Shown one piece after another: positions 8,661-48,292 of a stretch of 64,000 nt of DNA; position 1 is the first letter of the stretch, and each line of letters starts with the position of its first letter. The position numbers and the translations under genes are program-made. The DNA is taken from contig QHTZ01000067.1 in NCBI GenBank assembly GCA_003221005.1, forward strand, positions 43,417 through 107,416. The letters run 5' to 3'. The stretch is from Gemmatimonadota bacterium (lineage in GTDB: Bacteria > Gemmatimonadota > Gemmatimonadetes > Gemmatimonadales > GWC2-71-9). The notes beneath the pieces were generated by a model that saw only the letters and a program-made list of their open reading frames with translations, had not been told where the DNA came from and did no database searches.

Positions 8661-9461
8661 TCAGCGCACAACCGTTTCCCAGACGTCGAAGCGGGACGGG
8701 GGGCGGCGGCCCAGCGCACGGGCGGCAAGCGGGCGAAGCTCGTACCAAAGGGGATAGCGCACGCGGTGACGGCGCCAAGAGAGGTGGAAGGGCGCCGACG
8801 CGGCGGCGAGCCGATCCGCTGTGAGATACTCGATCATCCGCAGCGCGAGCAGGTCGGCGGCGCGATCCCCCCATTCCCGGCGTGCGGTCTCACGTTTTTC
8901 AGCGACCATCCGTTCTCCATCTACGGCACGCCCGTAGAACGGGCTGTCAAGGATAACGAGCCGGCCTCCGGGAAGGGTCGCGCGGACCGCCTCCCCGATC
9001 GTCCCGTCGAGTGACGACGTGTAATGGATGGCGGCGTTAAAGACGACGAGATCGAACGCGCGCTTCACGGGAAGCGCGTCGAAGGACGCCGCCACGCGGG
9101 ACAACGCCGGCGCGAGGTGAGCCCCGTACGCCGCGCCCGCGCCAAGGCCATCCACCGCGTCGCGCCGCCAATCGAGCGCGACGCACCGATGGCCCTGCAG
9201 CGCGAGCCGGTAGCAGAGCCAGCCGTTCCCCGCTCCCAGGTCCAGGACGTTGAGCGGTTGCGGAGCCCGGGCCCGCCTCAGTGGCGCCACCACCGCGCGC
9301 AGCAAGCACTCGTAGCTCCGGGCCCGCACGGCCCACTGACGCGCCAGCGGTCCTGTGCGGAGATACGGGAGAGCGAGGAGCTCTGCGACTCCCCTTGAAC
9401 CGCGGCCCTCGGCCTCCCGGTGCTTGGCGTAAGCCGTGCGGAATCGCGCCGACGTCGTCAT
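8661..9461 (-). CDS. class I SAM-dependent methyltransferase
   Basis: Motif I 'VLDLGAGNGW'; 'FDLVVFNAAIHY'. Confidence 0.85.
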   Translation of the reverse strand: MTTSARFRTAYAKHREAEGRGSRGVAELLALPYLRTGPLARQWAVRARSYECLLRAVVAPLRRARAPQPLNVLDLGAGNGWLCYRLALQGHRCVALDWRRDAVDGLGAGAAYGAHLAPALSRVAASFDALPVKRAFDLVVFNAAIHYTSSLDGTIGEAVRATLPGGRLVILDSPFYGRAVDGERMVAEKRETARREWGDRAADLLALRMIEYLTADRLAAASAPFHLSWRRHRVRYPLWYELRPLAARALGRRPPSRFDVWETVVR

Positions 9462-40026: not shown

Positions 40027-41256
40027 TTACGGGTCGAACCGGTCCAGCTTCCGGTCCCGCCGCCGCGCGAGCCAGTAGAGCGGCACGCCCAGGATCAGCG
40101 TCGCCCCTGAGGCGACCCACGCCTCAGCGATCCCCCGTGTGCGCGCGAGCCATCCCCATCCCGTCTGCCCGGCCACGCCACCCACGTTCGCGAAGAATGA
40201 ATCGAGCGAGATGATCGTGGCTCGCTGCTGCGACGGGATGTGGGCGTTGAGATAGCCCTGCTTCACCGGCATCCCCACGCCGAGTGCCATGCCATAGACG
40301 AGGTACAGCCCCACCACCACGTAGAAGTCCCGCAGCAGGCCGCACAGGACTACCGTGACCACCTGCACGACCACTGACGCGATCAGCATTCCGGTGCGCG
40401 AGCGAACGACGCGCGACAGCGGCACGACAAGCGCATTGCCGGCGATCAGCGTGAGCGACGTGAGCGCGGCGATCACCCCCGACACCCACACCGCCTCCCG
40501 CCCCAGCAGGTCCAGGAAGTAGCGCTGCCAGCTGTAGAAGCCGAAGATCATAAAGCTCATCGAGACGAGCGACCCGAGCATCAGCGGCCGGACCACCGGG
40601 TGGTGCAAGCCGTAGCGCATGCCCTCCACGAACACGCGCCGCATCTCCGCCGGCACGCGCGACAACGCGAGCGCACGCGGGGTGTAGCCGAGCTCGCGCA
40701 TCCCGAACCAGGCCAGCGCGAACAACGGCACCACGATTCCCGCCCGCACGAGGTAGGGCACGGCGAGATCGATCTGACCCAGCAAGCCGCCGGCGAGGGT
40801 ACCGACCAGCATCGCCGCGCCGAACGCCATCTGACCGCGCGCGAACACCGGCTCGAGCGGCGCGGTGTACCCCGTCGCCTTGAGAGCGTCGACCAGCCAT
40901 GCGTCCACCGCGCCGGTGTAGAACGTGTAGCCGAGTCCCAGAAACACCGACACGGCGGCGAACGGCCAGAAGCCCCACCCGAGCCGCGCGATCGCCACGT
41001 AGCAGAGTGTGGTGACGAACAAGGTGGCGAGGCACAACAGCAGCGAAATACGCCGCCCGAGGGTGTCGGCGACGACGCCGGTGGGGATCTCGAACAGGAC
41101 GTTGCCCAGCGTGAACGCGGCATTCGTGAGCATCACCTGGAAGATGTCCAACCCCGCGTGGAGCTTGAACAGCGTGTCGATGCCCCAGATCAGGGACATC
41201 GCCAGGTTGAAGAGCCCGGTGATCAGCAGGTAGACGCGGATGATCTGTGCGCTCAC
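40027..41256 (-). CDS. MFS transporter
   Basis: 'FEIPTGVVADTLGRRISL'; 12-TM pattern; overlaps the stop of the substrate-binding protein gene. Confidence 0.88.
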   Translation of the reverse strand: MSAQIIRVYLLITGLFNLAMSLIWGIDTLFKLHAGLDIFQVMLTNAAFTLGNVLFEIPTGVVADTLGRRISLLLCLATLFVTTLCYVAIARLGWGFWPFAAVSVFLGLGYTFYTGAVDAWLVDALKATGYTAPLEPVFARGQMAFGAAMLVGTLAGGLLGQIDLAVPYLVRAGIVVPLFALAWFGMRELGYTPRALALSRVPAEMRRVFVEGMRYGLHHPVVRPLMLGSLVSMSFMIFGFYSWQRYFLDLLGREAVWVSGVIAALTSLTLIAGNALVVPLSRVVRSRTGMLIASVVVQVVTVVLCGLLRDFYVVVGLYLVYGMALGVGMPVKQGYLNAHIPSQQRATIISLDSFFANVGGVAGQTGWGWLARTRGIAEAWVASGATLILGVPLYWLARRRDRKLDRFDP

Positions 41257-42122
41257 GGAACGTGCGCCTCGAGCCAGTCGTGCGCGATCGCCCGGATGTC
41301 CTGGTGCTGCACGTCGGCCAGCGCATTCAAGCGCCGCATCTCGTCGTCCGAGATCTTGCCGGTCAGCTCGCCGAGCGCGGCCGCCACCTCGGGATGGCGC
41401 CGCAACACCACTTCACGCGCGACGACCGCGGCTTCGTAGGGAGGGAAGTAATGCCGATCGTCTTCCAGGGCGACGAGATCGAGCGCGGCGATCTGACCGT
41501 CCGTCGAGTTGCCGGCGATCATGTCCACCTTTCCGTCGGCGAGCGCGCGGTAGGTGAGTCCCAAGTCCATCGCGGTCGGAGGCGCGCGGAAGGCAAGCCT
41601 GTACACCTGCGACAGCCCGGCGAATCCGTCTGCGCGCTCCAGGAACTCGTAACCGAACCCCGCCTTCCACCGCGGCGCGACGCGCGCCACGTCGGAGATC
41701 CGCGTCAGGCCATATTGCCGCGCTTCCGTCCGGCGGATCAGAATCGCGAACGTGTTGTTGAAGCCGAACGGCGCGAGCCACCGCAGGCCGAAGCGTGCCG
41801 CATAGTCGCGCGCCACGACTCGCGCCACGCTGTCCCGATCGCTCACCGGGGGGTGCTTGAGCACCGCCGTGAACGCGGTGCCCGTGTACTCGGGATAGAG
41901 ATCGATCTGTCCCGCGACGATCGCCTGATGACACACGAACGTGCCACCCAGGTGCAGGCGTCGCTCCACGGGCAGGTGCGCGCGCCGCTCGATCTGCTGC
42001 GCCACGAGCTCGGCGAGCAAGTCGGACTCCGTGAAGTTCTTGGCGCCCACGACGATCCGGTCGTGCCGGGCACACGAACTTGCTGCGGAGAGCGCGAGCA
42101 CCGCGGCGAGCAACGCGAGCAT
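41253..42122 (-). CDS. betaine/QAC-type ABC substrate-binding lipoprotein (OpuC/OsmF/EgtU family)
   Basis: 'VGAKNFTES', 'YPEYTGT', 'GFNNTFA', 'EFLERADG', 'FPPYEA'. Alternative start at 42224. Confidence 0.9.
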   Translation of the reverse strand: MLALLAAVLALSAASSCARHDRIVVGAKNFTESDLLAELVAQQIERRAHLPVERRLHLGGTFVCHQAIVAGQIDLYPEYTGTAFTAVLKHPPVSDRDSVARVVARDYAARFGLRWLAPFGFNNTFAILIRRTEARQYGLTRISDVARVAPRWKAGFGYEFLERADGFAGLSQVYRLAFRAPPTAMDLGLTYRALADGKVDMIAGNSTDGQIAALDLVALEDDRHYFPPYEAAVVAREVVLRRHPEVAAALGELTGKISDDEMRRLNALADVQHQDIRAIAHDWLEAHVP

Positions 42123-42249
42123 GCCGGCCCGGCGTTTCCCGTGCCCTGAAGGGCCGGCTCGGCGTAAACGCGCGTCTTTAAAGACGCGACCTCGGCCGAG
42201 CCGGCGTTTCAACGCACGGACCACACGTGAGGCCAGGTGGGAGTCCTGC

Positions 42250-42879
42250 TCACCTTGCCCGCCACACCAGCCGCCGCTCGAGCAGCGCGAACAGGCCGTC
42301 CGCCGCCAGCGCCATCAGCGCCGCCGGGATCGCGCCCGCGAGGATCAAGGTGTCGTCCACCACCGCCACGCCGCGGAAGACGTAGACGCCGAGCCCGCCC
42401 GCGCCGATCGCGGCGCCGATCGTAGCCACGCCCACGCTCACGACCGTCGCGACGCGCACACCCGCGAGAATGACCGCCGCAGCGAGGGGCAGCTCCACCA
42501 GCCGCAGCAGCTCGGCGTCCGTCATCCCCATGCCGCGACCGGCTTCGCGGATGGCTGGGTCCACGCCCGCGATTCCCGTGTAGGTGTTGCGCACGATGGG
42601 GAGTAGCGCGTACACGATCAGCGCGGTGATCGCCGTCCAGAACCCGATGCCGAAGATCGGAATGAGGATCCCGAAGAGCGCGAGGCTCGGGATCGTCTGG
42701 AACACCCCCGCGAGCCCGAGCACGGGGGGCCGCCACGCGGGTCGGCGGGTGAGCACCACGCCGAGGGGAATCCCCACGAGTGCCGCGGCACCGGTCGAGA
42801 GTACCACCAAGACGAGGTGCTGACCGACGAGACCGAGTGCCTCATGGGCGTTGCGCGCGAAGAACGCTACCAACCTCAT
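42250..42879 (-). CDS. betaine-type ABC permease
   Basis: 'FQTIPSLAL', EAA loop 'REAGRGMGMT', 'GAGGLG'. Confidence 0.92.
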   Translation of the reverse strand: MRLVAFFARNAHEALGLVGQHLVLVVLSTGAAALVGIPLGVVLTRRPAWRPPVLGLAGVFQTIPSLALFGILIPIFGIGFWTAITALIVYALLPIVRNTYTGIAGVDPAIREAGRGMGMTDAELLRLVELPLAAAVILAGVRVATVVSVGVATIGAAIGAGGLGVYVFRGVAVVDDTLILAGAIPAALMALAADGLFALLERRLVWRAR

Positions 42880-43628
42880 GCCGCCTCCAGGAAGCGGCGG
42901 ACCTCGGGGTGCTCGTTGCGACGGAATTCGTCGGGGGTACCGAGGAACAGCAGCCGTCCCGCATGCATCAACCCGATGCGCGTCCCCAGGAGCAGCCCCT
43001 CCCGCACGTCGTGGGTCACGAACACCATGCCCTTTCCCAGCCGCCCCTCGAGGGCGCGGAATTCCTGCTGCAGTTCGAAGCGCGTAATGGGATCGAGTGC
43101 GCCGAACGGCTCGTCCAGGAGCAGCAGCGGCGGGTCGGCAGCGAGCGCGCGCGCCACCCCGACCCGCTGCCGCTGACCGCCCGAGAGCTGGTGCGGATAG
43201 CGTCCACCGAACGCCTCCGGGTCGAGCCCCACGAGCGCGAGCAGCTCGCGCACCCGGGCCGCGATCCGCTCTGGAGGCCAGCGTTCGAGCCGCGGCACGA
43301 GTCCCGCGTTCTCGGCCACCGTGAAATGCGGCAGCAGACCCACCTCCTGAATCACGTAGCCGATCCGCCGCCGCAGCGACGTGGGCTCGAGCGCCGCGGT
43401 CCGCTGCCCCGCCACCAACACCTCCCCCACCGAAGGCTCGAGCAGACGGTTGATGAGCTTAAGTGTGGTCGTCTTCCCAGAGCCGCTGCGGCCGAGGAGC
43501 ACGAGGGTCTCTCCTGCACCCACAGTGAAGGACACGTCCCGGACGATCGGCAGGACCCGTCCCTCCTCCCCCGTCCCTCTTCCCGGCAACGTATAGCCGA
43601 GTCCCCGGACCTCGAGCACGGCGCTCAT
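42876..43628 (-). CDS. betaine-type ABC ATPase
   Basis: Walker A 'GRSGSGKT'; 'LSGGQRQR'; 'LLDEPFGALD'. Confidence 0.93.
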   Translation of the reverse strand: MSAVLEVRGLGYTLPGRGTGEEGRVLPIVRDVSFTVGAGETLVLLGRSGSGKTTTLKLINRLLEPSVGEVLVAGQRTAALEPTSLRRRIGYVIQEVGLLPHFTVAENAGLVPRLERWPPERIAARVRELLALVGLDPEAFGGRYPHQLSGGQRQRVGVARALAADPPLLLLDEPFGALDPITRFELQQEFRALEGRLGKGMVFVTHDVREGLLLGTRIGLMHAGRLLFLGTPDEFRRNEHPEVRRFLEAA

Positions 43629-44578
43629 TGCGCCCCCGCCCCCACCAGCACCATTTGAAAGCGGCCGTCTTCGCTCGTCCCGCGCCAGCGCTGCCCGAGG
43701 CCGGCATCTCGCAGGATTCGCAGGAACGTGTCGGCGTCGTACTTGTACGAGTGGTTCATTTCCAGCCGCTCGCCGGCACCGAGGGTCAGGGACTCTCCGC
43801 CGAGCCGGGCGGCGACGTCGCGGGTCGCCCGGAAGTGCTTGGTGAGGGGATGCAGCCCGGGGACGCGCGCGTCCTCGCGGTCCTCGAACACGAGCTCGCC
43901 GTCGGCCTCGGTGATCCCGACGGCGTGGAGCGGCGCCCACGCGAAGCGCCGGTTCAGGGGGTTGTCATAGCCAGCGACGGTGGCCTGGGCGGCGTAGATC
44001 TCGCCGTCCACGAGGAGCAGGTCGTCCCCGCGGAGCAGTTTCCGCAGGGCCCGCGTCTCGACCAGCGGATCGAATGCGCCGAGGGTGTTGCCCAGGAGCA
44101 AAATCAGGCGCGGCGGCGTTTCGGGATTAGGCGCCAGTGCAGTGAGGTGGTCGGTCCGTGTGAAGTCGGCCTTGACGCCCTGGGCGGGGAGCCCCGCGGC
44201 GACGGCGCCCTGACACGCGAGCTCGAGCAACGCCTGGCTCGTGTCTACGGGCGTGTAGGAGACGCGGATCCCGTGGGGTCGCAGCGCTTCGATGAGAAGC
44301 AGGTCCTTGTCCCCCTGCCCCGAGCCCAGGCTCAGGACCTCGAGCGGGCCGGGGGGTATGTAGCCAGCGAGGTCGGCGGCGGACCGAGCGATGAGCGAGC
44401 GCGACCGCACGTAGTTCCGGTAGGCGCCGTCCGAGCAGAGGGCGAGCCAGGCTCGGACGGACAGCGGAAACCAATAGAAGAATTTCTCCGGGAGCCGACG
44501 CGCGCGAAACGCGGCGACGAACTCGTCGGCGAGCGCGGTCTCGGTAAGTAGCGTGTGAGTGACGATCACGGAGTTCAA
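43625..44578 (-). CDS. EgtD-family (Methyltransf_33) SAM-dependent methyltransferase, divergent
   Basis: 'LPEKFFY', 'SLGSGQGDK', 'YTPVDTS', 'LGNTLG', 'GYDNP', 'GERLEMNHSYKY' are collinear with EgtD motifs. Confidence 0.8.
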   Translation of the reverse strand: MNSVIVTHTLLTETALADEFVAAFRARRLPEKFFYWFPLSVRAWLALCSDGAYRNYVRSRSLIARSAADLAGYIPPGPLEVLSLGSGQGDKDLLLIEALRPHGIRVSYTPVDTSQALLELACQGAVAAGLPAQGVKADFTRTDHLTALAPNPETPPRLILLLGNTLGAFDPLVETRALRKLLRGDDLLLVDGEIYAAQATVAGYDNPLNRRFAWAPLHAVGITEADGELVFEDREDARVPGLHPLTKHFRATRDVAARLGGESLTLGAGERLEMNHSYKYDADTFLRILRDAGLGQRWRGTSEDGRFQMVLVGAGAQ

Positions 44579-44588
44579 GAGTTACCGG

Positions 44589-44617
44589 TTGACGGGTCTG
44601 GCGGCAACCCGTATGCT
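44589..44617 (+). promoter_or_regulatory. sigma70-type promoter of the precursor peptide gene
   Basis: TTGACG-N17-TATGCT, about 50 nt upstream of ATG 44669; GGAGG RBS at 44656-44660. Confidence 0.7.
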
Positions 44618-44668
44618 ACGTTTCGTCTGCCGTCGTCTGATTTCCACGTAAAGACGGAGGATATTCGC

Positions 44669-44761
44669 ATGCAGATCGTCGAGACGCAGGAGCTCGTGCC
44701 CACCTGTCATCGGCCTGAGGTCGTGGAGACGAGCGAGCTGCAGCCAACCTGTCACTCCTGA
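44669..44761 (+). CDS. putative RiPP precursor peptide, 30 aa: MQIVETQELVPTCHRPEVVETSELQPTCHS
   Basis: Strong RBS and promoter; two 15-aa-period repeats (I/V)VETxELxPTCH; lies immediately upstream of the AKR-RRE, MNIO and partner genes. Confidence 0.85.
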   Translation: MQIVETQELVPTCHRPEVVETSELQPTCHS

Positions 44762-44775
44762 CGCAGGGCGGCTGG

Positions 44776-45900
44776 ATGCAAGAGGGGGCCCGGACCGATT
44801 TCGGGCCCCTTTCGCGTTTCCTGGGCACGGAGGCGCGACTGGGGTTCGGGGGCTGGGCGGTGGGCGGCGCGGGCTGGGGGACGCCAGACGACACGCACGA
44901 GCGCGAGGCCGCGATCCGGCGCGCCGTCGAGCGGGGCGTCACGTTCTTCGACACCGCGCCGACGTACGGTGACGGCGAGTCCGAGCGACTGCTGGGCCGC
45001 GCGCTCGGAACCGTGCGCGAGCGGGTGGCGATCGCCACCAAGGTCGGCCCGCGCGACGATCCACGCGCCTCACTCGAAGCGTCGCTGCGCCGCCTCACCA
45101 CGGACTGCGTGGACCTGGTGCAGCTGCACGAAGCGCTCGAACGGTGGGAATGGCAACTCGAAGCGCTCTATCGGCTGCAGCTCGAGGGAAAGGCCCTCGC
45201 GATCGGGCTCTGCAACGCCACTCACCTGCAGGTCGCGCGGGCGCTGACCATCGCTCCCCTGGCGACGTATCAGGGCACCTACAACCTGTTCGATCGCGAC
45301 GTAGAAGAGCGCGAGCTGCCACTGTGCCGCGAACGTGGCCTCGCGTTCCTGGCATTCCGGCCGCTCGCCGCAGGCCTGCTCACCGGCAAGTACCGGGAGC
45401 CTCCCGCCTTCCCGGACGATGACCACCGCCGCAAGGTCTATTGGTTCAAGGGGAAGGAGTTCGAGCGCCGCCAGCGGACGATCGAGCGGCTGCGGCGCGT
45501 TGCGCGCCGGGAGGGCGTGTCGCTGCTCGAGCTCGCCCTGGGGTGGCTGCGCGCGCGGCCGGGGGTGAACATGGTCCTGGTGGGCGCGAGAAACCGGTCG
45601 CAGGTCGAGGAGGCGTTCGTCCCGGGCGTCGGGCCGCTGACAGCGGACACGGTGAACGAGATCGACCTCATAGTCCGCGAGGTCTTCCGCCCGGGCCGCG
45701 GCACGGCGCAACTCGAGCGGGCGGCCGCGACGTGGGGAGAGCGCGAGCGCTTCATCGCGGCGCGGCTCGACGGGAAGACTCGCTACGAAGCGATCGCCGC
45801 CGAGTGGACCGACCGCGGCGAACAGCCGATGATCGCGGCGCAGATCAAGGTGTTCGTGGACCAGTTGGCTGAGCAACGGTTGGTTGACGCCGACGGCTGA
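44776..45900 (+). CDS. aldo/keto reductase with a C-terminal PqqD/RRE-like extension
   Basis: 'LGFGGWAVGG', 'FFDTAPTYG', 'IATKVG', 'DLVQLH', 'PLAAGLLTGKY'. Tail 'FIAARLDGKTRYEAIAAEW...IKVFVDQLAEQRLV'. Confidence 0.88.
   Translation: MQEGARTDFGPLSRFLGTEARLGFGGWAVGGAGWGTPDDTHEREAAIRRAVERGVTFFDTAPTYGDGESERLLGRALGTVRERVAIATKVGPRDDPRASLEASLRRLTTDCVDLVQLHEALERWEWQLEALYRLQLEGKALAIGLCNATHLQVARALTIAPLATYQGTYNLFDRDVEERELPLCRERGLAFLAFRPLAAGLLTGKYREPPAFPDDDHRRKVYWFKGKEFERRQRTIERLRRVARREGVSLLELALGWLRARPGVNMVLVGARNRSQVEEAFVPGVGPLTADTVNEIDLIVREVFRPGRGTAQLERAAATWGERERFIAARLDGKTRYEAIAAEWTDRGEQPMIAAQIKVFVDQLAEQRLVDADG
44782..44812 (+). terminator. stem-loop just downstream of the precursor gene (attenuator or mRNA stabiliser)
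   Basis: gagggggcccgga-ccgat-ttcgggccccttt: 13 bp including G-U pairs, followed by a weak U tract. Confidence 0.45.
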
Positions 45901-45906
45901 CCGCTG

Positions 45907-46692
45907 ATGGCTCTCATGGTCGGGGCGTTCTACAACCCTCAGCTCGGCGCTGAGCTCGCTGCGGCGAAGGGCATCGACCACCTCGCCATGGCCGACCCGC
46001 CGGCAGCACACGATGCGCACTGGCCCACCATCCGCGAGCGCTACACGCTGCTGCTCCACGACTACCTCGGCCAGCTCTCCGAGCCGCTCGATGAACGCTC
46101 GATCGAGCGTGCCCGCTCCCTCGCTACGTTGTACCGCACACCGTGGATCGCCGAGCATTTCCAGTGCCTGCACACGGAAGACGGGCGCTACAACATCAAC
46201 TACGTGTTCCCGCCGCTCTACACCGACGAGTTTCTGGAGCGTTTCGTCGCCAACGCACGCGCGCTCCAGGCGCGGCTCGAGCAGCCGCTCGTGATGGAGA
46301 ACATCCCCGGCTTCTTCGACGTCAAGGCGAGCCAGCTCCCGGAGCCTGTCTGGCTCGCGCGTTTCTTCGACGCGACCGAGGTCGGCTTTCTGCTCGACCT
46401 GCCGCACGTTTGGCTCGAGGCCCACTACCGCGGCATGAAGCCTGAAGCGTGGCTCGCGCAATTCCCGCTCGAGCACGTAGTCGAGCTGCACGTGGCCGGC
46501 GTCGAGGAGGACGAGGACCTGCGAGGTCCCTGGATCGCGCCCACCGCCCCGTCGGAGGCCATGCTCGCGTTTCTGGCGCACGCCGTCACTCGCTGTCCCC
46601 GGGCCAAGGCTGTCACGTTCGACGCATTTTCGCCGTCGCTCACCGCCGACGTGCTGTTCCGGAGCGTTGAACGGATCCGGGGGGCGCTGTGA
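45907..46692 (+). CDS. DUF692 / multinuclear non-heme iron oxidative enzyme (MNIO)
   Basis: 'WIAEHF', 'PPLYTDEFLERFVANARALQARLEQPLVMENI', 'FLLDLPH', 'VVELHVAG'. Confidence 0.85.
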   Translation: MALMVGAFYNPQLGAELAAAKGIDHLAMADPPAAHDAHWPTIRERYTLLLHDYLGQLSEPLDERSIERARSLATLYRTPWIAEHFQCLHTEDGRYNINYVFPPLYTDEFLERFVANARALQARLEQPLVMENIPGFFDVKASQLPEPVWLARFFDATEVGFLLDLPHVWLEAHYRGMKPEAWLAQFPLEHVVELHVAGVEEDEDLRGPWIAPTAPSEAMLAFLAHAVTRCPRAKAVTFDAFSPSLTADVLFRSVERIRGAL

Positions 46693-47459
46693 CCGACCGG
46701 GCACTCCAGGACCTGGTGCTGCGCGCGCTGGCCGACGCCTCGTTCCGGGCGTCATCCGCCTGGCGGCAGCGTGCGCTCGCGGACCCCGCGAAGGTGGAGC
46801 GGTTCGCACGCTTCCTCGCGCGGCACTTCTACTACGAGCGGATCGTGCACTTCTTCAAGTACTCGGGGGCGCTGGCGCGTGTGACCGGCCGGCGACCAGA
46901 GGGGACGCTCCGCGGTGCCGAATTCGAAGCGCTGCTCCCCGTGGTCGTACTCGGCAGTCGGCAGACGGCTCGCGCGGTCGCCGATCTCGTCGTGCGCGAA
47001 GTGAAGGGCGGCGCCCCCGTGGCCTCGATCCCATATCGCGACGACTTGCTGCGCTACGAGGCGGCGATGATGGTCGCGGAGGCGGGGCCGAGGGTGTGGC
47101 GAGAGAACGGGAAGGGGGAAGAGGGAAGAGGAACGGGTGTCCCGGAAACCGCTGAAGGAACAGTGCTGCTGGATCTCGCCTACGACCTACCGGCGGTCCT
47201 GCCGCAGCTGCTCCAGCCGTGGACCGAGGTGCCGCAGGCGCCGCCGCGACCGGTGCGACTCCTCGTCGCGCGCTCGCCCCGCGGCCGGGTCGCGGTCGCT
47301 CGCACCGACAGCGCGGTGGCGCGCGTGGTCGAGCTCGCGGACGGCCGCCGCACCCTCGAAGAGCTCGCACGCGCGGCCGGGTTGCCGCGGAACGAGCTCG
47401 AGGCCACGCTCGCCGGGCTCACCGACCTCGGCGCCGTTCGCTTCGGGACGGGCAGCTGA
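46689..47459 (+). CDS. MNIO partner protein (DUF2063/HvfC-like N-terminus, RRE/wHTH C-terminus)
   Basis: 'DLLRYEAA'; C-terminal 'VVELADGRRTLEELARAAG...LAGLTDLGAV'. GTGA overlap with the MNIO gene. Confidence 0.7.
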   Translation: MTDRALQDLVLRALADASFRASSAWRQRALADPAKVERFARFLARHFYYERIVHFFKYSGALARVTGRRPEGTLRGAEFEALLPVVVLGSRQTARAVADLVVREVKGGAPVASIPYRDDLLRYEAAMMVAEAGPRVWRENGKGEEGRGTGVPETAEGTVLLDLAYDLPAVLPQLLQPWTEVPQAPPRPVRLLVARSPRGRVAVARTDSAVARVVELADGRRTLEELARAAGLPRNELEATLAGLTDLGAVRFGTGS

Positions 47460-47470
47460 GCGCCGTGGCG

Positions 47471-48292
47471 TTACGCGGGCTTTCGCGCGCGCACGAACGC
47501 GCCCATGATCCTGCCGCTCACCTCGCGCGCCAGGACATCGACGTCGAGCCCGGCCCCAGCCAGCACGGCCCGCGCATCCTCGAAGCTGTAGATCCGGGTC
47601 GGCTCGATCCCGACGTTTTCGAAGCCGTTCGCGCTAAGCAGCGCCTTGAACTCTTCCTCCTCGAGGGCGCCGGCCACGCATCCCACCCACAGCTCCATGC
47701 TGCGGCGCACCTCACGCGGGATCTCCCCCCGCACCACGACGTCGGAGACGGCGAACCGGCCACCGGGCTTGAGCACGCGAAACGCCTCGGCCAGCACCCG
47801 CCGCTTATCGGCGGCGAGGTTGATGACGCAGTTCGAGATGATGACGTCCACCGACGCGTCCGGAAGAGGAATGCGCTCGATGTCCCCTTTCAAGAACTCG
47901 ACGTTCTCGACCCCGGCCTTCCGCTGGTTTTCGCGCGCCAGGGCGAGCATCTCGTCGGTCATGTCGAGCCCGTACGCCTTGCCGGTCGGCCCCACGCGCC
48001 GGGCGGAGAGCAGCACGTCGATGCCCCCGCCGGAGCCGAGGTCGAGCACCACTTCTCCCGGGAGCAGCTCGGCGAGCGCAGTTGGGTTGCCGCAGCCGAG
48101 CGAAGCGAGCACGGCTTGCTCGGGGAGGGACGCGGTCTCAGCAGCCTCGTACAGGTTGGATGTGACGGGATCGCAGCCGCCGCTCGCTGCGGCGCCGCCG
48201 CAACACGAGCTTCCCTGCCCGTGCAGCACGCGCAGCGCCGCCTCTCCGTACTTCGCCCGTACGGTGTCCTTGATCACGGTGTCGTCGGTCAT
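47471..48292 (-). CDS. arsM: arsenite methyltransferase
   Basis: 'SCCG', 'SLGCGNP', 'LDLGSGGGID', 'ISNCVINL', 'WVGCVAGAL'. Confidence 0.9.
   Translation of the reverse strand: MTDDTVIKDTVRAKYGEAALRVLHGQGSSCCGGAAASGGCDPVTSNLYEAAETASLPEQAVLASLGCGNPTALAELLPGEVVLDLGSGGGIDVLLSARRVGPTGKAYGLDMTDEMLALARENQRKAGVENVEFLKGDIERIPLPDASVDVIISNCVINLAADKRRVLAEAFRVLKPGGRFAVSDVVVRGEIPREVRRSMELWVGCVAGALEEEEFKALLSANGFENVGIEPTRIYSFEDARAVLAGAGLDVDVLAREVSGRIMGAFVRARKPA

Follow-up and report, generated by a model that had tools for sequence, protein, structure and literature searches.

What does a bacterium make with a DUF692 oxidase (MNIO) whose gene stands back to back with those of an EgtD-like methyltransferase and a quaternary-amine importer? 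The question is raised by positions 40027–47459 of a 64,000-nucleotide stretch of Gemmatimonadota DNA (contig QHTZ01000067.1 of assembly GCA_003221005.1), which in its full length we call the window and whose source genome is 93.9% complete. An earlier note on this DNA had listed two tightly packed, divergent operons here, and every one of their genes is where the note placed it. On the plus strand, running rightward, lie the genes for a precursor peptide (44669–44761), an aldo-keto reductase (44776–45900), the MNIO (45907–46692) and the partner protein of the MNIO (46689–47459). On the minus strand, running leftward, lie those for the methyltransferase (43625–44569), for the ATPase (42876–43628), permease (42250–42879) and substrate-binding protein (41253–42224) of an ATP-binding cassette (ABC) importer and, as the last gene of the operon, for a major facilitator superfamily (MFS) transporter (40027–41256). 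The G+C content of the region is about 68–70%, with no compositional break. We describe a conserved core, found in Gemmatimonadota and in two lineages of Acidobacteriota, that consists of the repeat peptide, the MNIO, a TglI/DUF2063-type partner and the EgtD-like methyltransferase, and we tentatively put forward a two-module pathway in which a Cys-His or selenocysteine (Sec)-His unit of the peptide would become a small methylated betaine-type product.

Do these genes belong together outside the window? We found 855 related proteins, the system being common in soil Gemmatimonadales, and assembled a comparison set of 80 related loci, 67 of them Gemmatimonadales-type and seven from Terriglobales. 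Neighbouring genes were counted by tblastn at an identity of at least 35% and within 9 kb of the MNIO gene, and only in loci with enough flank. The earlier note had named loss of the peptide or of the EgtD arm from homologous MNIO loci as the outcome that would speak against a joint system, and neither is lost: 74 of the 80 loci have a homologous peptide immediately before the enzyme genes, and the methyltransferase is adjacent in 67 of the 68 whose upstream flank is 2.5 kb or longer. Five of the six peptide-less loci have an upstream contig too short to reach the place that the peptide occupies in their relatives. An apparent case of a locus without peptide and methyltransferase (L043) was rejected as an assembly split, the missing arm being found on another contig of the same genome (L084).

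Across the Gemmatimonadales-type loci we counted the methyltransferase in 57/57, the reductase in 59/60, the partner in 45/45, the ATPase in 53/54, the permease in 52/52 and the binding protein in 50/50; the MFS transporter gene, which occurs in no other lineage, is present in 41 of the 42 that have at least 7 kb of upstream flank. All three Gemmatimonadaceae loci that could be counted carry the methyltransferase. In the seven Terriglobales loci the only conserved genes are those for the methyltransferase (6/7), the peptide, the MNIO and the partner, the last having escaped the 35% tblastn filter because the identity is a mere 30–38%. Locus L081, the Terriglobales locus with unrelated genes upstream, has its methyltransferase on another contig of the same genome. 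The reductase is present in none of the seven and is also absent from G522 and G807, two genomes of a second Acidobacteriota lineage. The neighbourhood test suggested in the earlier note thus gave a divided answer, with peptide, MNIO, partner and EgtD-like methyltransferase co-occurring and the reductase, ABC arm and MFS gene not universal. Its expectation that the ABC arm would accompany all homologous MNIO loci did not fully hold, as the arm is absent beside the seven Terriglobales loci (L080 has a lone ATPase-like match of 41% identity), though it is joined to the methyltransferase elsewhere. The reductase is an add-on of Gemmatimonadota-type loci only. The methyltransferase and the betaine-type ABC importer form a separate module of methyltransferase, ATPase, permease and binding protein, which is kept in Gemmatimonadales-type loci (53/54) and in both G522 and G807.

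Could the two operons nevertheless be unrelated neighbours, that is, an osmoprotectant operon and a stray methyltransferase lying beside an independent MNIO peptide cluster? The ABC genes do resemble osmoprotectant importers, the Terriglobales loci lack them, and in two genomes (G401 and G807) the methyltransferase is unlinked from the MNIO, on a different contig, while still being encoded in the genome. However, a phylum-wide sample of 401 Gemmatimonadota genomes gave, apart from the genome of the window, 19 genomes with an MNIO orthologue (at least 64% identity) and 20 with a methyltransferase orthologue (at least 51% identity). Every one of the 19 belongs to the 20, and in 18 the two genes share a contig; only one of the 20 (G042) has the methyltransferase without a detectable MNIO. 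Moreover, adjacency is maintained in two phyla despite differing flanks, and the methyltransferase subfamily is sharply set apart, with at least 51% identity within it as compared to at most 36% to other PF10017 genes. We therefore regard a chance neighbourhood as highly improbable. The MNIO orthologues are patchily distributed (11/11 genomes of one genus, 3/3 of another and 0/2 of the window's own genus), a pattern that is usual for accessory biosynthetic clusters.

Is the small open reading frame (ORF) the substrate? The window peptide is 30 amino acids long (MQIVETQELVPTCHRPEVVETSELQPTCHS), is preceded by GGAGGA 8 nt upstream and consists of two (I/V)VExxELxP(T/S)CH repeats; it has no signal peptide and opens directly with the repeat. 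In the two-repeat set E5, T6, L9, P11, C13 and H14 are invariant, as are their equivalents in repeat 2. The residue after His varies: the C-terminal residue is S, T, A, I, R, V or L or there is none, the Terriglobales peptides stopping exactly at His, and Asp takes this place in no precursor. Two repeats are found in Gemmatimonadales-type loci, three in Terriglobales and in one Actinomycetota-labelled metagenome-assembled genome, four in Gemmatimonadaceae and in a second Actinomycetota-labelled genome of this kind, and one in the Sec variants of G522 and G807 described below. The number of units ranges from one to four, with just one in the Sec variants, which suggests that each unit functions independently. 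A Shine-Dalgarno site precedes every listed copy of the peptide, and conservation of the peptide together with this site across two phyla argues that it is not a chance ORF. That the ORF is instead a leader or regulatory peptide, or arises by chance, with the MNIO acting on something else, is extremely unlikely in our view. Its amino acids are conserved although DNA and flanks diverge, its P(T/S)CH core is kept while the repeat number changes, each listed copy has its Shine-Dalgarno site, the codons that follow the in-frame TGA of the Sec variants are conserved, and the ORF always lies directly upstream of the enzyme genes.

Does the Cys of the repeat matter as such? In a second sample, of 401 Acidobacteriota genomes, orthologues turned up only in G403, which is the Terriglobales example, and in G522; a search of the order of G522 added G807, so that two of its ten genomes carry the cluster. 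In G522 the partner, the MNIO and a small ORF lie on one strand after an amino-acid permease and an MFS gene, and the methyltransferase–ATPase–permease–binding-protein module lies divergently. In G807 this module is on a contig other than that of the peptide arm, intact and in the same gene order. Both cluster genomes of this order have an in-frame TGA instead of the conserved Cys codon. With TGA read as U, the one-unit precursors would be MMKDLLLEQVATEELVPTUHN in G522 (L085, G522:C6, about 9327–9389, minus strand) and MEKLELEVVVTEELVPTUHN in G807 (L088, G807:C1, 1334–1393, plus strand). The two loci have in common the TGA, the CAC AAC codons (His, Asn) after it and a 16-nt identical hairpin, and they diverge at synonymous sites and in the N-terminal half.

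The hairpin, CCUCCG-GUU-CGGAGG, begins 12 nt after the UGA and has a 6-bp stem and a GUU loop that starts 18 nt after the UGA; the 47-nt hairpin folds have energies of −13.5 and −15.4 kcal/mol. The model of the bacterial selenocysteine insertion sequence (SECIS) as given in PMC13188914 sets a loop of 3–9 nt, a stem of 4–16 bp, 16–37 nt from UGA to loop, a G in the first two loop positions and a minimum free energy of at most −7.5 kcal/mol, and the hairpin agrees with that model in all four constraints. A second, terminator-like hairpin follows the first. A comparison of the two loci with Rfam yielded neither a SECIS nor any other relevant family. The elongation factor SelB scores over the cut-off in both genomes (320 and 322 bits vs 242); G522 has a tRNA-Sec (77 bits; ARAGORN anticodon tca), and none was found in the G807 assembly. 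Scans of metagenomes for further TGA-variant precursors found none, so the Sec variant is known from two genomes of one order. Taken together, the codon context and the selenoprotein machinery make it likely that the TGA is read as selenocysteine in both precursors, the alternative being nonsense mutations, independent or inherited, in two clusters that are otherwise intact. Replacement of Cys by TGA, a conserved SECIS-like hairpin and SelB suggest that the chalcogen atom matters to the product. The genome of the window itself has a tRNA-Sec gene (G000:C36:4016–4105, 82.5 bits), though its precursor uses Cys.

What kind of enzyme would act on this motif? The MNIO scores well above the Pfam gathering threshold (PF05114, 94.3 bits vs 25) and far below the NCBIfam equivalog cut-offs for ApyH (105.2/400), BufB (86.3/310), HvfB (51/360) and ChrH (17/600 bits); judged by these scores, it is a clear member of the family and the equivalog of no named subfamily. 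Its two best solved relatives are 3bww and TglH (8hci_D). In 32 aligned orthologues H25, H51, D52, E83, H84, H89, E131, D164, H167, E193, H195 and D239 are invariant, and these His, Asp and Glu residues are putative metal ligands. The partner is modelled with high confidence (mean predicted local distance difference test score, pLDDT, 92.2) as an N-terminal helical domain followed by beta-strands and three helices that form a C-terminal winged helix of the RiPP recognition element (RRE) type, RiPPs being ribosomally synthesised and post-translationally modified peptides. Sequence comparison gave the partner only weak matches, to NGO1945_C and to ApyI (25.5 bits vs a cut-off of 200, E=7e-6), and no match in a search of solved structures; the fold search alone succeeded, with Foldseek retrieving TglI (8hi7_A, E=2.4e-5, TM-score 0.53) and NGO1945 (3dee, E=4e-4). 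TglI and the DUF2063 protein NGO1945 are typical MNIO partners according to PMC12452194.

The nearest named families of the reductase (PF00248, 202 bits) reduce aldehydes or 2-oxoaldehydes, and D59, Y64, K89 and H118, presumably the catalytic tetrad, are invariant in 32 aligned orthologues. It ends in a conserved tail of 70 residues (about residues 305–374, nt 45688–45897), in which the earlier note had seen a likeness to an RRE. In favour of this, a profile–profile (HH) comparison of the tail with the RRE domain of the partner gave P=3e-4, as compared to 0.83 and 0.057 for controls; against it, the PqqD match (E=0.0086, 16.8 bits) is below the cut-off of 23.4 and covers profile positions 21–67 only, and the AlphaFold model (pLDDT 90) has helices at 311–317, 322–329, 337–346 and 354–366 and no beta-sheet. 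The tail would therefore be RRE-like at best in its helical half. A predicted complex of reductase and peptide gave no answer (score 0.01), which counts neither for nor against binding. L047 has no reductase, and nor does L013, a short-flanked locus in which the peptide nonetheless lies directly before the MNIO; in Gemmatimonadaceae the reductase is intact in three of four loci. The gene is decaying in some loci. In L073 (2117–2320), the fourth Gemmatimonadaceae locus, an internal deletion has left a remnant with the N-terminal ~70 residues fused to the last 15, and in L022 (9029–9985) the reductase matches as two overlapping pieces, suggesting a frameshift. A 637-residue ORF in L024 that looked like a reductase–MNIO fusion was rejected, as a TGA separates the two genes.

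How does this arm compare with characterised MNIO pathways? In the pearlin pathway, Cys is added to the C-terminus of a scaffold peptide. That system (TglA/TglHI, Pseudomonas syringae) resembles ours in pairing an MNIO with a TglI-type partner, TglI being the best Foldseek match of our partner and TglH one of the two best solved relatives of our MNIO; the scaffold-borne Cys is oxidised and ends up in a small thia-amino acid (PMC12452194), and pearlin therefore serves as a precedent for a small excised product. Unlike in pearlin, here Cys or Sec is encoded within one to four internal repeats and always stands before His, there is neither a PEARL ligase nor a dedicated protease, and pearlin has nothing that corresponds to the EgtD-like methyltransferase, the reductase or the importer. 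The aminopyruvatide system (ApyA/ApyHI) supplies the best NCBIfam matches of both MNIO and partner and likewise has a precursor without a signal peptide. However, the scores (105.2/400 and 25.5/200) are far below equivalog level, ApyH modifies a C-terminal Asp (PMC12452194) whereas the invariant residues here are Cys/Sec-His, and there is no P450 gene here. Bufferins (BufA/BufBC) and oxazolins (HvfA/HvfBC) are made by an MNIO and a DUF2063-like partner that act on Cys, and HvfA, too, has repeated Cys motifs (PMC12452194). They differ in that BufB and HvfB scores (86/310 and 51/360 bits) are below cut-off, that the Sec-type signal peptides and DoxX described for bufferins in PMC12452194 have no equivalent here, and that neither system, as described in its text, includes a methyltransferase, a reductase or an importer.

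As an alternative, the cluster could make a peptidic metal binder. Each Cys or Sec would then be turned by the MNIO into a thio(seleno)oxazole or an oxazolone-thioamide beside His, so that every repeat provides one N,S(Se),imidazole site for a metal, in the manner of bufferins and methanobactins. Methyltransferase and reductase would tailor the peptide, and the MFS transporter would export it. Cys-His is a typical metal-binding pair. The BufB family is the second-best NCBIfam match of the MNIO (86 bits), the partner is of the TglI/DUF2063 type, no protease is required, and most characterised Cys-acting MNIOs form such heterocycles (PMC12452194). There is also a precedent for alternation of Cys and Sec: in the thio(seleno)oxazole RiPPs (SbtA/SbtM) Cys alternates with TGA-encoded Sec and a SECIS follows right after the TGA (PMC11002830). 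That family, however, uses a radical S-adenosylmethionine/SPASM enzyme and not an MNIO, and the passage on it in PMC11002830 describes no methyltransferase–importer module. Speaking against a metal binder are the MNIO equivalog scores, which are all far below the cut-offs, the lack of a signal peptide and of any DoxX gene seen, unlike in bufferin clusters as described, and the one-unit precursors, which would give just one site. We rate this reading as less likely than not, yet nearly as likely as the small betaine-type product, and the other half of the cluster bears on it further.

Is the methyltransferase an EgtD? It falls in the Methyltransf_33 family (PF10017, 85.6 bits vs a cut-off of 23), as the label EgtD-like in the earlier note implied, and fails the egtD equivalog model (TIGR03438, 61.6 vs 290.9 bits). 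The protein has the length of EgtD, matches EgtD structures distantly (E about 1e-7) and contains no extra peptide-binding domain. In a HMMER alignment with 4uy6_A, the positions equivalent to EgtD N166, T213, M252 and E282, which we take to be residues of the histidine-binding pocket, read A, R, K and N, and the equivalents of Y206 and S284 are kept and invariant. Across the subfamily alignment the equivalents of N166, T213 and E282 read A/G, R and N/S, and both phyla retain the A/G and R together with the invariant Y, S and K. As far as the alignment tells, this is an EgtD-fold enzyme with a different pocket, representing a distinct subfamily.

It is also the sole PF10017 protein in the genome of the window. 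None of 21 cluster genomes has a second PF10017 match, whereas 137 of 380 other genomes have a PF10017 match that is of canonical type and only 24–36% identical to the window methyltransferase, which makes the usual route to ergothioneine a common one in this phylum. We then compared six cluster genomes (that of the window and five more) with five relatives that have a canonical-type EgtD match and were picked as the best-scoring distant PF10017 matches. EgtB was over the cut-off in none of the six and in all of the five relatives, where it adjoins the EgtD match in three (G316:C25, G370:C10 and G135:C16). This hints, and given related genomes (8 genera) and five plus five picked ones it can only hint, that the EgtB/EgtD pathway and the cluster are mutually exclusive.

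What might the importer carry? The OpuAC-type importer is complete, with a binding protein (PF04069, 203.5 bits), a permease (PF00528) and an ATPase of the betaine/proline/choline type that has no extra domain (PF00005). The best NCBIfam match of the ATPase is proV (TIGR01186, 258.7 bits, cut-off 326.6), and those of the permease are the choline and ProW permeases, both again below cut-off. Among solved relatives the binding protein matches OpuBC-derived sensors with 197 bits, OpuCC/OpuBC with 176 and the ergothioneine binder EgtUC with 165 (E=2e-47), which places it, on sequence, about equally near choline/carnitine binders and EgtUC and in the small-ligand OpuBC/OpuCC/EgtUC group, whose members hold small quaternary amines. 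The ABC module can move or be lost. In L003 and L008 the ABC genes do not follow the methyltransferase but are found downstream of the partner gene and on the other strand, and in L005 there are none within 10 kb downstream. The MFS transporter is of efflux type (PF07690, 72.8 bits), with weak NCBIfam matches to Tet(40)/TetA(P)-like proteins that are far below cut-off. The reading as a peptidic metal binder gives no reason for the EgtD-fold enzyme to stay with an importer for small quaternary amines, which it does even where both lie on another contig than the peptide genes; and solved OpuAC-type binding proteins hold small ligands.

The comparison with ergothioneine (EgtD, EgtB; EgtUV) accordingly has two sides. 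On one are the PF10017 and EgtD structure matches, the likeness of the binding protein to EgtUC and a Cys sulfur beside a His; on the other are the failed EgtD equivalog, the changed pocket, the lack of an EgtB over the cut-off and the fact that His and Cys are here residues of a ribosomal peptide and not free amino acids. One way to join the two sides would be for the peptide to be a sacrificial sulfur or selenium donor: the methyltransferase or the importer would supply hercynine, and the MNIO would join Cys or Sec to it much as EgtB does with gamma-glutamylcysteine, the neighbouring His serving only for catalysis or binding. The methyltransferase–importer module would provide the betaine, EgtB is not over the cut-off in 6/6 cluster genomes checked, and alternation of Cys and Sec would yield ergothioneine- and selenoneine-type products. 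Nevertheless, we find this donor scheme very unlikely, as the positions that we take to hold the histidine ring in EgtD are altered, making hercynine synthesis doubtful, the invariant His after every Cys or Sec is more simply part of the product, there is no C-S lyase, and the MNIO reactions tabulated in PMC12452194 include no intermolecular coupling.

Another way would be a ribosomal route to a thio- or seleno-histidine betaine, of ergothioneine or selenoneine type, that replaces the EgtB/EgtD pathway. The chalcogen of the encoded Cys or Sec would be transferred by the MNIO to the imidazole of the His next to it, and the unit would be excised; the reductase, where present, would handle the keto-acyl stub; the EgtD-like enzyme, its pocket reshaped for the chalcogen-bearing ring, would trimethylate the amine; and the EgtUV-like importer would salvage the compound. 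We rate this specific route as unlikely. Alternation of Cys and Sec, the methyltransferase–importer module and the lack of EgtB in the six genomes fit, but do not prove, a thio-histidine or betaine product of the kind that the earlier note had considered.

We rank first, still tentatively, the two-module pathway in which a Cys/Sec-His unit gives a small methylated betaine-type product. Module A would consist of the peptide, the MNIO and the partner. The RRE-type domain of the partner would hold the (I/V)VExxEL part of each repeat, and the MNIO, an iron enzyme, would oxidise the Cys or Sec of P(T/S)(C/U)H with sulfur or selenium retained; in Gemmatimonadota-type loci the reductase would then reduce the carbonyl left by this oxidation. 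A small His-containing unit would be released from each repeat. Module B would be the EgtD-fold methyltransferase, translationally coupled to the quaternary-amine importer, and would N-methylate the amine of the released unit to give the betaine-type product, which the MFS transporter would export and the importer would take up, be it the cell's own or the same compound made by neighbours. The gene identities, their synteny and co-occurrence, the repeat with its Cys/Sec pattern, the folds and the intact reductase tetrad are observed directly; each chemical step, the release of the unit, the substrate of the methyltransferase and the ligand of the importer are inferred. We place this small product above the metal binder because the link between methyltransferase and importer outlasts their unlinking from the peptide arm, because the methyltransferase has no extra peptide-binding domain, and because the units number from one to four and an amino-acid permease gene stands in the G522 operon.

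Several points weigh against the small product. The conserved core contains no protease or C-S lyase, leaving the release of a small unit unexplained, and none of the MNIO reactions tabulated in PMC12452194 shifts sulfur to a neighbouring residue or frees a small His unit. The methyltransferase scores far below the egtD equivalog cut-off, and the peptide itself could be its substrate. The binding protein is no nearer to EgtUC (165 bits) than to choline/carnitine binders (176–197 bits), the full set of ABC genes is found in 0/7 Terriglobales loci, and the apparent exclusion of the EgtB/EgtD pathway carries the sampling limits given above. Nor does the Sec variant favour a small product, as Sec precursors are also found in thio(seleno)oxazole RiPPs (PMC11002830).

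How new is this combination? The earlier note knew of no characterised cluster that joins an MNIO with an aldo-keto reductase and an EgtD-like enzyme, and the literature that we searched, taken without the figures and supplements of the MNIO survey, agrees: we found no paper joining an MNIO with an EgtD-like enzyme, with a reductase or with Gemmatimonadota, and no report of a Sec-bearing MNIO substrate. The text of the survey (PMC12452194) describes no matching family, while its figures (such as the Pfam names of Fig. 5b) and supplements might mention one. Within this scope, the Cys/Sec-His repeat would be a new substrate motif for MNIOs, and the EgtD-fold methyltransferase, the reductase with its recognition-like tail and the quaternary-amine importer are new companions for them. 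MNIOs are a fast-growing source of new peptide chemistry, and the four core genes are small enough for expression in Escherichia coli, making the chemistry directly testable. The natural Cys-to-Sec swap would, as far as the searched literature goes, be the first Sec-bearing MNIO substrate and a probe for the chalcogen atom. A product of the thio- or seleno-histidine betaine type would give a major antioxidant class a new, ribosomal origin; a thio(seleno)oxazole-His peptide would be a metal binder of a new class, from two soil phyla that are abundant and little known.

The arrangement of the genes in the window is compact. The ATG of the ATPase (43628–43626) overlaps the stop codon of the methyltransferase (ATGA), MNIO and partner overlap by GTGA, and there are 4-nt overlaps between binding protein and MFS gene and between ATPase and permease. 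The earlier note had the operons diverge from an intergenic region of 90 bp (44579–44668). The divergent layout stands; the length is about 99 bp, as the start of the methyltransferase is probably GTG 44569, the most likely one from an alignment of 35 orthologues, and not the end of the ORF at 44578. A promoter-like site for the rightward operon lies in this region (44589–44617, plus strand; TTGACG-17-TATGCT, 9/12 consensus matches); this is a consensus match only, and 8.5 kb contain two such sites as compared to 0.5 expected. RNA contigs from two soil metatranscriptome runs of one study (X19 and X20) cover 44669–44739, beginning at the ATG of the peptide. The contigs of the peptide ORF are 90–93% alike to the window with depths of 69 and 66, the highest on the stretch, and those of the methyltransferase gene from the same runs are 99–100% alike with depths of 2–3; coming from relatives, with DNA carry-over possible and depth unsuited to ranking genes, they give a weak hint of transcription, and stretches lacking such contigs are uninformative.

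The genes flanking the cluster (SnoaL-like, RidA-like, arsenite-methyltransferase-like, cold-shock and HD/TPR) look unrelated to it. The arsenite-methyltransferase-like gene (47471–48292, minus strand; NCBIfam 365.8 bits, cut-off 263) and the partner gene converge. Similar genes, accompanied by a MarR regulator, adjoin three of the seven Terriglobales loci and, in G807, occur some 7.5 kb away from the locus; as none is found in the other 73 of the 80 loci, we count it as a neighbour and not as part of the cluster. Its presence could be due to chance or to a loose tie to chalcogen or metalloid methylation.

Finally, the rightward operon takes up additional genes in some loci. Between MNIO and partner there is an LssY_C gene in 24 loci, a beta-propeller gene in six and a membrane protein gene in one; an alpha/beta hydrolase gene separates reductase and MNIO in 12 loci, and 15 of the LssY_C loci have one some 4 kb downstream. 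Examples of insertions are L030 (10780–11979), L049 (8825–9973), L062 (10791–11819) and L004 (10782–11477). The products of the inserted genes are apparently exported; being variable and absent from the window, these genes are not counted as core. The recurring alpha/beta hydrolase may be a processing enzyme. In L036 (12769–15146), representing the LssY_C-type loci, ArsC/Spx-like, DinB-like (both labelled by eye from sequence) and alpha/beta hydrolase genes follow downstream of the partner.

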